Made by a program: the position numbers and the translations under genes. The notes under the pieces are model-generated. The model searched no databases. It saw only the letters and a program-made list of their open reading frames with translations, and was not told the origin of the DNA. From assembly GCA_964016885.1 (NCBI GenBank), contig OZ024761.1, forward strand, positions 28,396,001 through 28,460,000: a stretch of DNA of 64,000 nt, in the 5' to 3' direction. The stretch is from Eledone cirrhosa (lineage: Eukaryota). This document shows, one piece after another, positions 1 through 61,075 of the stretch. Positions within the stretch are counted from its first letter, which is position 1. Every line of letters begins with the position of its first letter.

Positions 1-151
1 CAATAACATTTGTGTTTTCATCAGATAAAATAGGAGGACATGATATGAAGGTTAAAAACACTTGTTGATTTAAAACTGCACTATCCACAAGTGTTTTTAA
101 CCTTCATATCATGTCCTCCTATTTTATCTGATGAAAACACAAATGTTATTG
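1..151. repeat. Perfect inverted repeat (arms 1-65 and 87-151; left arm probably continues off-window)
   Basis: 1-65 is the exact reverse complement of 87-151; each arm carries a hammerhead CTGATGA core. Confidence 0.95.
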
Positions 152-190
152 CATGATGATATTTGTTTTTGAAATGCGCATAATAAAATA
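120..190 (+). ncRNA. Type I minimal hammerhead ribozyme (intact core)
   Basis: Stem I tattttat/ataaaata; CTGATGA 128-134; stem II acaaatgttatt/gatgatatttgt; GAAA 171-174; palindromic stem III tgcgca; AUA cleavage triplet ending at 182. Confidence 0.85.
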
Positions 191-219
191 CATGGAACTC
201 TTTTAACCATCTTTTGATC

Positions 220-3330
<3,111 letters not shown>

Positions 3331-4358
3331 AATGTATCTTGTAGTTAGTACAAATTTTCGAATCTCTGGTGCAAACATGGTAAAATCTGTGCTTTTTGTT
3401 CTTTTTGAAAAAACAAAAAACAAAAGAAAAAACAGTAAAAAAAAATATTAACTTTATGAAATTCTAATGATTCTCTGGGTACTTGCCACAAATCATTTTC
3501 AGATTTGGTGTTAAGAAAAACACTAATAACAGTGAAACTTAAACATTTCTAAGGAATATGTATAGATATAAAACATTTCTTTATCAAGCATAAAAAACAT
3601 ATTAAAAATTACACAAATCATAGCCAAAAAAATATAATAATAATAATAATAATAAAAATGTTTTTCAAGACATGTAGGATAGTCTGTAGAACATAATTTT
3701 TTTTAAATTCTCAGTGGATTGTGTAAATCAGAACTTTTCCATACGACTGGCCTACCACCAAGCCTTCTCTACTCCTTGCACATCCCAGCTAGAAAATATG
3801 GTTTATAGAAGAAGCACTGTCTAATGAACATCATGGCATATATTTTTCACCCAATTTTCTCCGGAAATATTTCTGTAAGAACACTGACTGGACTTTGTAT
3901 TTTGTAGTGGGAGTGGAAGAGATTAGGAGGATTGGAAGAGAGGAATTGGAAGAGAGGAAGGAGAGGGAGAAGAAATGGGAAGGAGGGATTGTTTCTTTGA
4001 AAAGAGTTGCAAACTTTCTTGCAAAATGTATACGATACATAGAGAATATAGAATTTCTCAAGGGAGGAAAAGAAGAATATAGAGAAAATTTTGAGAAAAT
4101 TTTGAGAAAATCTACTTAAAATATGGATTGGATCTATTGAGAGAAAAGAAAAATTACATTGGCATATCTATATATATATATATATATAAATGGAAAAGAA
4201 TGAAACAAAATTTCATTTCTCACTCTTAGTACGGCTGATACCTAAATATAAATATTTATATGTACATACACATATGTGTACAGACGTACAGTAGTATGTA
4301 TATAGCCGTACAGTGCTCGGCTGCCATCGTCGCCCTTTTGTTCAACACTGACACAGGA

Positions 4359-4401
4359 ACGATGTACTAGTTTCAAGCTTATTAGCTATCGTCAGCATCG
4401 T
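4359..4401 (-). ncRNA. Type I minimal hammerhead ribozyme (intact core)
   Basis: Minus strand reads acgatg-CTGACGA-tagctaataagctt-GAAA-ctag-TA-catcgt; stem I 6 bp, palindromic stem III, GUA site. Confidence 0.8.
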
Positions 4402-4759
4402 ATACCTTTCTGTCAGATGATTGAACATTTGAAGGTATATACTTTCCTTATGCATATTAACGACTGAGCAGCACAATTTGCATATCAAGTGAGTTAGTCG
4501 GCCGGGCGCACCGAAAACGATAAATGGAAAAGAATGAAACAAAATTTCATTTCTCACTCTTAGTACGGCTGATACCTAAATATAAGTATTTATACGCACA
4601 TATGTGTACAGGCGTACAGTAGTATGTATATATATACATACATGCACACATATATATGTGTACGTATGGGTTTACCGAACATTTATGATAATGCTCGGTT
4701 TGTTTATGCATAAGGAAAGTATATACCTTCAAACGTTCAATCATTTGACAGAAAGGTAT

Positions 4760-4802
4760 ACAATGCTGACAATAGCTAATAAGCTTGAAACTAGTACATC
4801 GT
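4760..4802 (+). ncRNA. Hammerhead copy with core mutation (CTGACAA, G8->A)
   Basis: acaatg-CTGACAA-tagctaataagctt-GAAA-ctag-TA-catcgt; inverted twin of 4359-4401. Confidence 0.65.
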
Positions 4803-4884
4803 TCCTGTGTCAGTGTTGAACAAAAGGACGACGATGGTAGCCGAGCATTGTACGGCGTAATTTGGGCTGTTTGTTTACAAATAT

Positions 4885-20695: not shown

Positions 20696-21771
20696 AATTT
20701 CTTTATTAGCCACGAGGGCACTAAAGAAGGGGACAAATACAAATGGGGAGTTTACATACAGGTATATGAAAATAAAACTATTAATAAAATAACAAATAAC
20801 AATTGAAATCCTCAATAGGGGGAGGCATTACACAGGGGTTGTACACCCCCCCCCAAAATGTACAACCCTCATCTCCCGGAGCACCAAGAGTGAATACTCC
20901 CTTCCTCTCTTCCTATTTTTCCTCAAGCTACAGGCTTATATAGAGAGAAGGCCCAACCACTCGGGCCATCTTTGCCACATTCACCCACCTTTTATAAAAT
21001 TTGCTGGGGTACAGCACCTCTCTCTCCATCCTGATTCTTCTTCCAAAATGATATTTGAAAAAACGAATCAGTTGCTCGCCGGAGATAAAGGTGTCTGACC
21101 TCAGCCCTTTTAACCTCGTCCACCATAGCCATAACACATAGGAAAACCACCTCTCCCTCGTTTTTGAAGGAGGGTGGTGGTTTGATCATGACAATGGACT
21201 CGGTGGTCAACTGGATTGGTCCCACCCGTGACAATAGTCATTCTACATAGCCCCACAGGTCGGTAACGCCCGGGCAGTGTACAAATGTGTGTGCGACGGT
21301 TTCCTCGTCGCGCACGCATCTCGGACAGATCTTTTTCGAGGGTCCCTGCCCAGGGGCCCGTGTCTGTAGAGCTTGTCTCGAACTGGTAGAGCTCTTCAGT
21401 AGCACTGCCAGGCCAGGGACTTTTGGAAGTTGTCCATTGGTCCCGGGCGGAAAGTCCTACTGAACAGACTGGCCAGTTCGTCCTCCTCTACGCCTAGAGT
21501 TTCTCCGAGCGCGTCGTCACACTTGCTGCGGACCAGCCCTCTATAGAATGTCGAAATGGAGTCTCCACTGATTGCCGGGTCCGTTCACCAGAGGACTGTG
21601 AGCGCCTGAGCACATTCGATATGCCAGTCGCCCGTTTTCCTCGGTCTTTGCTTGACCCAGCACTGCAGCTCGGTCAGTGAGACGAGTCGTGGGAAGGCTC
21701 GCCTCACGAACGGGGCCCACACTGGTTGTCCGGTGAGGAATACGTGGAGTTGCCGTAGCCTGAGCGCGATA
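20696..21771 (-). mobile_element. 5'-truncated L1/Tx1-clade LINE inserted in (GACA/GATA)n
   Basis: Minus strand encodes the CCHC finger CPRCVRDEETVAHTFVHCP and C-terminal WWTR...FYKRW; AATAAA at the 3' end; 13-bp TSD aaacagatagata at 20683-20695 and 21772-21784. Confidence 0.8.
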
Positions 21772-28817: not shown

Positions 28818-29525
28818 CAATTATAGAATGCTGGTGATGATGATATACATATATCTCACAACATGCAGATTTGTAAGATATATCCTGTGGCTTTGATTTA
28901 CTCGTTATAAGCACATCAACCATCACCATCCTCACCACCACCACCACTAGAAACACCACTGCCGCCATGACAGACACCACTACCACTGTGGCCACCATCA
29001 CTACCACCACCACCATCACCACCACCATCCTTATCATCATCACCCCTTCAACTGCATACAAACATCATGATGAAGCTAACAGATGCTATACCATATATAC
29101 CATCATCCCCATAAATCCACCACCACCACCGACCCAACCCACCATTCCATCCACCCAACCACCACCACCACCACCACCACCACCAGCCCCTGAACTGAAT
29201 TCTATATAGCCATCTCCACCTCTACTAAAACCATCCCTTCCAGCCTTCTTCTGCAGGAAAATCCCCTTGACAAGGTTCAGCATCCACTGTAATCTTCTTT
29301 CCTGAGATCAGAGATAAACTACAGAACTGGGTCTTTAATCTACAGCATCCTACCACTACCACCACCACCACCACCACCACCACCACCACTACCACTACCA
29401 CCACCACTTTTATACTTCTAGAGGAGCCAACCATATGAGCTCAACCTGCTAGAAATAGCAGCAAAATATTTCTCAGTTCTCAAGGTAATGTCTTAAATAA
29501 GGTACAATATGTTGTATTAATTTTT

Positions 29526-29925
29526 AGCGGTGGATTGGCAGTATTGGTAGAGGGGTCGGACACCATGCTTTTTGACGCATAGAATTACGGCCCCTATCAT
29601 TCTGAGTTCAAATCCCGCCGAGGATAACTTTGCCTTTCATCCTTACGGGGTCGATAAAATAAAGTACCAGTAATGCACTGGGTAATTTGCTGGCCTTGTG
29701 CCTAAAGTAGAAACAATTATTTAATGTAGTTAAAGGCGGTGGATTGGCAATATCAGTAGAGGGTCGGACGCTATGCTTTGCAGCATAGAGTTATGGCCCT
29801 TGCCATTCTGAGTTCAAATCACGCATAGGATAACTTTCCCTTTCATCCTCACGGGGTCAATAAAATAAAGTACCAGTAATACACTGGGTAATTGCTGGCC
29901 TTGTGCCAAATGTAGAAACAATTAT
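29526..29925 (+). mobile_element. Two tandem SINE family 1 copies
   Basis: Two full units, each followed by aattatttaatgtagtta. Confidence 0.9.
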
Positions 29926-30199
29926 TTAATGTAGTTAGACACGCTCCTAAAATATTGATGTTGCCATGGATGAGTCGCATCTGATTTAGGATATTCTGGA
30001 TCAAGGTTAGCCTTGGGCTAAACAACATAAACAGTTATAGCTATTGTTGTTGTTGTTGCTTTTCAGGTTATTGTTGTTATTGCTGTGATTAATGTCGTTG
30101 TTGTGGTAATGGTGGTTGTTGTTGTTGTTGTTGTTGTGATAATTACTGTTGTTGTTGTTATGGTGGTTATTGTTTGTGTTTCAGATTATGAAAGCAGCT

Positions 30200-30462: not shown

Positions 30463-31038
30463 CTCCAAGGTTCTTAAAAAATCTTTGCTATAAGACACAC
30501 AAGGAAAACAATAGCTGTGGCCTAGTGGTAAGGGTGTTGGACTTATGATCATAATTCTTTCTACTTTTTGGCACAAGGCCAGCAAATACCCAGTACATTA
30601 CTGGTACTTCATTTTATCAACCCCGTAAGGATGAAAGGCAAAGTTAACCTCGGCGGGATTTGAACTGAGACCATAAAGGGCCGTAACTATTTGCTGCAAA
30701 GCATGGTGTCCAACCTTCTACCGATACTGCCAAACCACCAAAGTGTAATAATTGTTTCTAGTTTTGGCACAAAGCCAGCAATTACCCAGTACATTACTGG
30801 TACTTCATTTTATCAGCCCCGTAAGGATGAAAGGCAAAGTTAACCTCGGCGGGATTAACATTGCCTTTCATTCTTACGGGGTCGATAAAATGAAGTACCA
30901 GTAATGTACTGGGTAATTGCTGGCCTTGTGCCAAAAGTAGAAACAATTATGATCATAAGTCCAACACCCTTACCACTAGGCCACGGATATTGTTTTCCTT
31001 GTGTGTCTTATAGCAAAGATTTCTTAAGAACCTTGGAG
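30463..31038. repeat. Fold-back inverted duplication containing SINE family 1 pieces
   Basis: 30463-30640 is the reverse complement of 30861-31038; hairpin centre at 30839-30859. Confidence 0.9.
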
Positions 31039-41999: not shown

Positions 42000-42059
42000 T
42001 ATTCTATTATATATATTTCAAGGGTACCAAAGCTTTGGTACTTCTCATCAGATAAAATA
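42000..42059 (-). ncRNA. Hammerhead ribozyme, family A (intact core)
   Basis: tattttat-CTGATGA-gaagtaccaaagctttggtaccctt-GAAA-tatata-TA-atagaata. Confidence 0.8.
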
Positions 42060-42221: not shown

Positions 42222-42284
42222 TATTTTATTATATATATTTTGGAGGTACTGTGCTGTTTTTTCAGTACGTCATCAGATAAAATA
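42222..42284 (-). ncRNA. Degenerate hammerhead (GAAA->AAAA) within an inverted-repeat element spanning 42174-42727
   Basis: tattttat-CTGATGA-cgtactg...cagtacctcc-AAAA-tatata-TA-ataaaata; the inverted partial copy at 42311-42336 retains GAAA. Confidence 0.6.
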
Positions 42285-45058: not shown

Positions 45059-45119
45059 TATTCTATTATATATATTTTATGGGTACCAAAACTTTGGTAC
45101 GCTCTCATCAGATAAAATA
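45059..45119 (-). ncRNA. Hammerhead family A copy with G12->A mutation
   Basis: tattttat-CTGATGA-gagcgtaccaaagttttggtacccat-AAAA-tatata-TA-atagaata. Confidence 0.65.
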
Positions 45120-45640: not shown

Positions 45641-46353
45641 TCATTATTATTATTGTTTGATTGTGTTGTGGTGGTGGTGGTGGTGGTGGTGGTGGTGGTG
45701 GTGATAGTGGTGGTGGTGATAGTGGTGGTGGTGATGGTAGTGGTGGTGGTGGTGGTGATGGTGATGGTGGTGGTAGTGGTGGTGGTGAGAGTTGATGATG
45801 TTGGTGGTGGTGGTGGTGATGCTGATGATGGAGGTGAGAGTTAATGGCAGTGGTGGTATTGGTGATGGTATGGTGAGTGTTGGAGTTGATGTTGTTGTTG
45901 AGAGTTGACAGAATAATGAAGAATGACAAGGGGAAATTAACTTCGATATAGTTAATATATTATAATTAAGTGAGGAGGGGCAGAAGGGTGTTGTAAATGG
46001 GGGAGGGGGCACCTTTGGTTTTGTTGTTTGTTTTTGTTTGTCTCACATGGTGAACAGCAAGGGAGAAAAAGGAGAGGGTGTGTGTGAGGGTATGTTTGAG
46101 GGTATGTGGGGGGTAAGGGCAAGTGTGTGTGAGGGTGTGTGTGAGAGGGTTTGAGGGTGAAGGTGTGTAGATGTGTGTTGGGGAGTGAGGGTGTGGGGGT
46201 GAGTGCATGTGTGTGTGAGAGAGGGTGAGGGTGTGTGGATGTGTGTGTTAGGTGGTGAGAGTGTGGGGGTGAGTGCATGTGTGTGTGAGTGCATGTGTGT
46301 GCAAAGCAGAGTTTCCAAATGGAACCATTTGGAAATTCTGCTTCGTAGAATCG

Positions 46354-46450
46354 AGACATATCTGAGGATCTTGCGATTTCAGAGTCAGGTTTGATCATTG
46401 CATCGATCGTGCCTCGAGCTGGTCGCCAGAGAAACGATTGTAATATGTCT
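46354..46450 (+). ncRNA. Hammerhead ribozyme with long (62-nt) stem II (intact core)
   Basis: Stem I agacatat/atatgtct (8 bp perfect); CTGAGGA 46362-46368; stem II tcttgcgatt...ggtcgccaga; GAAA 46431-46434; stem III cgattg; GUA site; AATAAA immediately after. Confidence 0.8.
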
Positions 46451-46720: not shown

Positions 46721-47829
46721 CATCATCATCATCATCGTTTAACGTCCATCTTCCATGCTTGCATGGGTTTGGACGGGAATTTTCCCACTTGAGGCAAGAT
46801 TGGTTGTCTTGCTCGTATAGGACTGTCCGGCGGGTTTTCTACAGCTGGATGCCCTTCCTAACACCAACCACGTTTACAGTGTGGACTGGATGGTTTTTAC
46901 CGTGTTACCTACACGGCCACATTACAGCGTGGGCTGTGTGTTTTTTTTGTCGTGACACCTACACAACCTCATTTATTTCGGACTGGATGTTGTGGTACCA
47001 ACATAACTTTACATCGAAAGGGTGGTGTGGATGGGGTGGGGGTAGTGGGACGGGGTGTATTTTTGTTAAGAGGTGCCTACTGACTGTAGGTTTCGCTTTG
47101 TACTTAGGCAAGGCGGGTCTTCTGTATTACTGTGTAGCGCCAAAGATCTTGGTCCAGTGACATTGTCTTGGAGAGGTGTAAGTGTGTGAGGTCGGAATTT
47201 ATCAAGTCGTCCCAGATTTTTCTGGGTCTGCCTACTCCGTGGCTACCGTCTATTTTTATCGCCCTGCACTTTTTTATACAGCTGTCGTCTTTCATGCGCA
47301 TCACGTGACCATACCAACGTAGTCTTCTCTCGAGTAAACAACATCTGATCCCTCTTATTCCTAATTTCTCCCTTACTTCACTTATGCTTTGCCGTTCACG
47401 TATATTACTATTACACATACAATGGAGCATGCAAGCTTCGTTCCTCTCTAGTCTGCGTATATCCTCTGCACACAATGCCCAAGTCTTACTTCCATGTAAC
47501 ATTGCTGTTCGTATGCAGGCATCATACAGCCTGCCTTTCATTTTTAGAGAGAACCTTTAGCGGCCAATAGTGGTATAAGCTCTCTGAACTTTTTCCATCC
47601 TGTTCTGACTCTAGCTACTGTACTTGCAGAGCACCCTCCACCACTGCTGATTTTGTAACCCAAGTAACGGAAGGTGTCCACTATTTCTATAGAACCATCT
47701 GTGCAATGGAATGAGCTAGTATTCTGTGGGCATTTGCTGCTACTTATTGTACCTGAGCACCGGCCACATATAAAATCTATATTCTTAGTTAGCTTACCTG
47801 TGATCGCACTACATCTTTTATGCACCCAT
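46721..47829 (-). mobile_element. RTE-type LINE (family B) 3' fragment, ~1.1 kb
   Basis: HKRCS...CGRC...EIVDTFRYLG...ARVRTGWKKFREL and KGRLYDACIRTAMLHGSKTW...RRLRWYGHVMR...GRPRKIW; long 3' UTR and (TGA)n tail. Confidence 0.92.
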
Positions 47830-51303: not shown

Positions 51304-51363
51304 TATTTTATCTGATGAGAGTGTACCAAAATTTGGTACCCTTGAAATATATATAATAGAATA
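51304..51363 (+). ncRNA. Hammerhead ribozyme, family A (intact core)
   Basis: tattttat-CTGATGA-gagtgtaccaaaatttggtaccctt-GAAA-tatata-TA-atagaata. Confidence 0.85.

Positions 51364-59459: not shown

Positions 59460-61075
<1,616 letters not shown>

Follow-up and report, generated by a model that had tools for sequence, protein, structure and literature searches.

The window, a 64,000-nucleotide stretch of Eledone cirrhosa DNA (contig OZ024761.1 of assembly GCA_964016885.1, positions 28,396,001 to 28,460,000), is AT-rich and microsatellite-rich and contains no N. Its repeats probably resemble those of octopus genomes. At its left edge lies a palindrome in which a copy of a hammerhead-bearing repeat is joined head to head to an inverted copy of part of itself. 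The features of this locus, together with the other hammerhead copies found in the window, are collected in Table 1.

Table 1. Features of the palindromic locus and other hammerhead copies in the window
Feature	Positions	Strand	Evidence or remark
Left arm of the palindrome	1-65	-	Inverted copy of 87-151, running off the left window edge; 65/65 pairs
CUGAUGA core box of the inverted half-hammerhead	18-24	-	Motif scan
Junction microhomology, 3 nt	63-65	.	Bases fit both the inverted arm and the start of the forward family sequence
Forward, 5'-truncated copy of the high-copy hammerhead-bearing repeat	63-215	+	Read depth, loose ends
Spacer, ordinary forward-copy family sequence	66-86	+	Covered by ca. 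560-590 X16 reads and by X1 and X4 contigs
Right arm of the palindrome	87-151	+	65/65 pairs
Type I hammerhead motif	120-190	+	Descriptor match, pairing, model score
Self-complementary 8-mer: 2-bp helix III plus loop, predicted dimerisation site	174-181	+	Palindrome test
(TA)n microsatellite adjoining the 3' end of the copy, likely target	228-268	.	Sequence; first TA run at 228
Second head-to-head hammerhead pair, different family, left arm	4305-4456	-	145/152 identical to right arm (95%)
Second head-to-head hammerhead pair, different family, right arm	4705-4856	+	145/152 identical to left arm (95%)
Related hammerhead copy	42000-42059	-	
Related hammerhead copy	42222-42284	-	
Related hammerhead copy	45059-45119	-	
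Related hammerhead copy	51304-51363	+	
Related hammerhead copy	60253-60318	-	

The sequence-only reading had described the two arms as free of mismatches, and this was borne out along their whole length (1-65 against 151-87), a match whose chance probability given the composition is about 3e-35 per site. The arms are separated by 21 nt; the first mismatch is between 66 and 86, pairing resumes at 67-69 with 85-83, and the microhomology at the junction extends to six of seven bases over 63-69. The core box that had been claimed for the left arm was also recovered on the minus strand (match at 24). However, the description of two hammerheads back to back stands for one motif only, since the left arm holds half of the mirror copy, whose second stem II strand, GAAA, cut site, and closing stem I strand need 39 bases to the left of position 1. 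The suggestion that the event was recent is only weakly bounded, as the absence of mismatches over 65 positions still allows up to 4.5% divergence at 95% and has a probability of 0.047 at the divergence of the second pair (4305-4856).

In the forward copy, stem I (120-127/183-190) forms eight of eight pairs and stem II (135-150/155-170) forms 15 of 16, with the core boxes CUGAUGA (128-134) and GAAA (171-174) in order around them and a UA at 181-182, after which the cut is predicted. The hammerhead descriptor matched six times in the window, once at 128, whereas 30 block shuffles gave 0.17 matches on average. A model built from the five related window copies gave 37.9 bits to 116-195 (E of ca. 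1e-4, a rough value), while the next match outside the training set scored 22.1 bits. The 8-mer of helix III has a duplex energy of -10.5 kcal/mol, and the corresponding positions are palindromic in four of the five related copies too. As to the claim of a complete hammerhead, stems I and II and the core boxes were upheld, but helix III has only 2 bp, the pair 10.1-11.1 is A135-U170 and not the usual G-C, and Rfam searches yielded no hammerhead family, either above the gathering score anywhere in the window or at E ≤10 in 1-400 and 110-200. The sister copy at 51312 was likewise unmatched in Rfam. By sequence and predicted structure, 120-190 has the makings of a minimal type I hammerhead of the kind found in Penelope-like elements (PLEs).

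Variants among the reads of the family are in keeping with this structure. Both G at 135 and C at 170 are present, and the variants at 138 and 167 together would close the one mismatch of stem II. Among the listed read variants at paired positions, 10 of 11 keep a pair, compared with 26 of 46 for all possible transitions (p of ca. 0.02, with variants counted per site and not linked on one molecule). None of the listed variants falls on the 12 core positions, except at U7. A separate set of about 1140 X16 reads, all beginning at 173, has T in place of G at 176, which disrupts the palindrome of helix III; this set probably comes from a single locus.

Two of the five related copies have GAAA changed to AAAA, and those at 42276 and 42051 share one orientation and are separated by 225 nt. 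A descriptor match at 46350-46445 (plus strand), in which 62 nt are inserted between the core boxes and helix III is nonpalindromic, scores 19.6 bits under the window model and is possibly due to chance. The second head-to-head pair is of a more complex make. Its minus-strand copy has an intact core, while G8 is changed to A in the plus-strand copy; 248 nt separate the arms, about 30 extra bases are found at the right outer end only, before a (CA)n run, and a 119-nt direct duplication (4186-4304 and 4520-4632) brackets the left copy. This pair is not a simple join.

Of 18 public sequencing runs, 4 were aligned to 1-225 at 85% likeness, which gave 2713 contigs from X1, 15 contigs from X4, 3414 reads from X16, and none from X13. 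Some words of the locus are shared by 12 of the 18 runs, which may come from other individuals or species. None of the 18 is recorded as RNA, which carries no information on expression. In three of the four aligned runs (X1, X4, and X16), depth rises at 63 and similarity ends near 215, with loose ends before the former position and behind the latter, so that the family spans 63 to ca. 215. Letters other than those of the window stand before 63 in 495 X16 reads, 22 X1 contigs, and one X4 contig. The three consensus ends before 63 agree in their last five bases, so the family extends further upstream, is not palindromic as such, and is 5' truncated in the copy at 63-215. Loose ends before 94 were considered as a second end of the element (a tail 31 nt from 63) and rejected, their consensus being a diverged version of 65-93 with one extra base.

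Coverage in X16 falls from about 560 reads at 65-72 to about 4 at 49-56. Thus, the palindrome is not family-wide, and the inversion is specific to this locus. A MITE or other element with terminal inverted repeats was rejected on the same depths, because most copies do not have the inverted repeat. At position 145, both arms carry the window letter, while the other letter makes up 75% of the depth in X1 and 68% in X16, and only 70 of the 3414 X16 reads are ≥99% alike to the window. That both arms share the same minority letters points to one template or one young source. For two independent copies, the chance of matching at the polymorphic sites of the arms would be 0.017 (X1) or 6e-5 (X16) if the sites are taken as unlinked, an assumption that overstates the case, as the rarest single site alone gives 0.25 to 0.30.

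Other head-to-head joints were found in the same family. One X1 contig (depth, 16.8) joins 29 to 63 and could be an allele of the window locus, and 19 X16 reads with two starts join 32 to 120. An opposite-strand joint of 86 to 163 in four X16 reads and a joint of 88 to 173 in one X1 contig were not counted as head-to-head support.

The sequence-only reading had taken the locus for the inverted pseudo-LTR arrangement of PLE insertions. Its anatomy, the reads, and the literature fit this reading, but no reverse transcriptase or endonuclease gene could be tied to the family. From 470 frames of at least 55 amino acids in the window, 168 passed a complexity filter, and no RVT_1 or GIY-YIG match was found in the 145 of these that were searched against Pfam. 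The locus acts as the 5' end of a PLE insertion would but is not an autonomous PLE, and the link of the family to PLEs is drawn from anatomy. An inverted, 5'-truncated copy adjoins the 5' end of the forward one, an arrangement often found in PLEs according to the accessible text of PMC8557442. The AT-rich microsatellite target is a weaker indication: the predicted cut is followed by (TA)n at a distance of 46 nt, or of 49 to 68 nt in the related copies, such repeats being very common in the window. From what could be consulted of PMC8557442 and PMC3846280, the locus resembles the pseudo-LTR insertions of endonuclease-bearing PLEs in its 5'-truncated copy with a head-to-head inverted one, its palindromic junction, its hammerhead near the 3' end, and its (TA)n neighbor, but differs from them in having neither an ORF nor a direct pair of pseudo-LTRs.

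The motif itself shares with the PLE minimal hammerheads of PMC4209133 (as described in its accessible parts) a U-rich 5' side, CUGANGA, a long helix II, GAAA, a small palindromic helix III, NUH, and an AU-rich 3' side. Unlike those, it has A-U at 10.1-11.1 and no unpaired base after A9, and its helices are longer than in the Schistosoma families of that work (16 versus 7 to 8 bp for helix II and 8 versus 4 to 5 bp for helix I). The same source, in its text and the legend of supplement S4A, gives 100 to 700 bp between minimal hammerheads on opposite strands, and the two cores at our locus are 104 nt apart. The portions available of PMC13282606 list PLEs in an octopus genome and do not mention hammerheads. 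A motif search of the supplements at hand for PMC13282606, PMC8557442, and PMC4209133 did not find the family sequence, which other repeat libraries may contain.

Non-LTR retrozymes are also noncoding, AT-rich, and high copy with a type I hammerhead, and the accessible parts of PMC7229834 and bioRxiv 10.64898/2026.07.22.740005 propose PLE pseudo-LTRs as their origin. However, they consist of head-to-tail monomers of 150 to 450 bp with a hammerhead each, a tandem that the locus does not have. A tandem retrozyme was rejected because the window holds no second same-sense copy of 66-230 and the upstream and downstream loose ends differ. A microRNA precursor was also discarded, the best score being 58.8 bits against a gathering score of 95, with matches of a generic hairpin kind. 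Two scans of metagenome contigs gave zero and two loci, both of the latter being 20-nt matches inside bacterial-looking ORFs, and a viral scan gave 79 loci with matches of up to 27 nt and otherwise weak alignments at E of at least 0.2. These short matches are put down to chance.

The locus is very probably a real product of PLE-type insertion, and likely an ordinary head-to-head stump of such an event rather than a purpose-built antisense switch. The arrangement is a published and common outcome of PLE insertion and is therefore less surprising than the sequence-only reading had judged. As for the route, we tentatively favor, at a little short of even chances, one in which two target-primed cDNAs of a single PLE insertion joined the copy at 63-215 to an inverted copy of itself at the 3-nt microhomology. 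A PLE protein acting in trans would nick both strands of an AT-rich target, and each nick would prime a cDNA on one shared template, close to its 3' end. The two cDNAs would break off early, at positions 63 and 87 of the family, and their 3' ends would then anneal over 63-65 and be filled in. This meeting of two cDNAs is suggested by the purified PLE protein of PMC11167929, which, in the accessible account, cleaves AT-rich DNA on both strands and extends them, beginning at two sites that delimit the tail, insertion being independent of hammerhead cleavage. None of the five related hammerhead copies elsewhere in the window is paired with an inverted one, which we count against such a route. Twin priming of the LINE-1 type was rejected, because it inverts without duplicating.

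The same PLE-type insertion could instead have proceeded by fold-back self-priming, with the antisense strand ending at 63, pairing with 87-89, and copying from 90 onward. We regard this as possible, though less likely than not, and where only these two routes are weighed, they are nearly balanced with the two-cDNA route slightly ahead, the junction fitting both equally well. Fold-back priming explains directly why the arms are identical and have minority letters in common, and the microhomology sits in a natural hairpin of the family (63-69 with 83-89, six of seven pairs), yet the stability of this hairpin in DNA is marginal (-0.2 kcal/mol). Head-to-head palindromic junctions are read as self-priming on an antisense template in the available text of PMC3846280. 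Against this, fold-back priming would poorly explain why, in the published descriptions as far as these were accessible, both sides of an insertion have defined 3' ends and one of them bears a tail.

A fold-back chimera made at the contig end, during either assembly or library preparation, would explain why the arms are perfect, why the loop is short and has microhomology, and why one arm extends to position 1. In addition, no read or contig among the pieces listed (16 of 2782) spans the junction. With no more than 8 of the 2713 X1 pieces among those listed, however, a short contig across the junction may have escaped notice. The fold also falls at the truncation point of the family, which it has in common with the 29-to-63 joint of single-locus-like depth; the 64 kb of microsatellite-rich DNA contain no N; and the enclosed pair at 4305-4856, with seven mismatches, cannot be a fold-back read. 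We therefore consider such an artifact unlikely as the origin of the left arm.

An inversion after insertion, by either a repair-associated chromosomal fold-back or two insertions homogenized by gene conversion, is a still less likely origin. Microhomology-mediated inversions are a general product of repair, and the second pair has the look of two events, of which one is bracketed by the 119-nt duplication. However, head-to-head joints recur within one family, and agreement of two independent copies at the polymorphic sites of the arms would have a probability of about 0.02 (X1) or less if these are unlinked and of at most about 0.25 to 0.3 from the rarest site alone. The accessible descriptions of PLE insertions (PMC8557442 and PMC3846280) also show this pattern as one of the elements themselves.

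The antisense sequestration of the ribozyme proposed from the sequence held up in computed folding for plus-strand RNA that starts at or to the left of ca. 28. Without the left arm, mean pair probabilities were 0.73 to 0.88 for stem I and 0.81 to 0.83 for stem II; with it, both fell to 0.00 and the arms paired at 0.997. In prefix folding, 120-150 became locked ahead of synthesis of the 3' half, and stem I had a computed probability of 0.80 for an RNA starting at 33 and of 0.01 for a start at 28. The same hairpin was computed for the minus-strand RNA. In a read-through RNA, the 65-bp hairpin would thus replace the ribozyme fold, so that the locus is probably catalytically dead and could serve at most to supply double-stranded RNA.

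With its 2-bp helix III, the hammerhead is predicted to depend for cleavage on dimerisation with a second motif of the same sense, and a partner on the opposite strand cannot provide one. The computed energy of such a dimer is -34.1 kcal/mol, versus -20.0 for two monomers whose helix III is open. For the metazoan PLE minimal hammerheads, the consulted part of PMC4209133 describes no cleavage of single motifs in vitro and low cleavage of dimers. The flip of stem I between starts 33 and 28 would suit a selected switch, in which the choice of start site would either let the hammerhead fold and cut or leave it blocked by the left arm, but the same-sense partner predicted to be required is absent from the locus, the junction is locus-specific and differs between loci, and any inverted copy yields the same folding result, so we rate such a switch as very improbable. 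Our literature search found no paper on antisense sequestration of retroelement hammerheads.

A more far-reaching idea, which we hold to be improbable as well, is that head-to-head joining amounts to self-silencing of the hammerhead repeats of this genome: every inverted insertion would trap the ribozyme it carries in an extended hairpin, the resulting double-stranded RNA would silence or edit the family, and PLEs would insert by two meeting cDNAs. If this were true, the pattern of tails and target sites at many loci would show two target-primed cDNAs meeting in the middle of the element. A single locus matters little, as the arrangement is already in print for PLEs; its value is as one of many natural records of the insertion mechanism. 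A high-copy family with differing head-to-head joints would allow two nicks and fold-back priming to be told apart by genome-wide counts of arm ends, tails, and target-site duplications.

Other repeats were seen in the window. A SINE-like cluster at 30463-31038 and 29515-29926 is arranged in both tandem and inverted order, and two of its arms (30463-30655 and 30847-31038, 193 nt) share 93.8% identity. Two retroelement-like remnants lie on the minus strand. One, at 21241-21456, matches zf-RVT with 26.1 bits, just below the cutoff of 27.5, and the other, at 47104-47556, has a 150-amino-acid frame with no Pfam match that presumably resembles the C terminus of a LINE protein.
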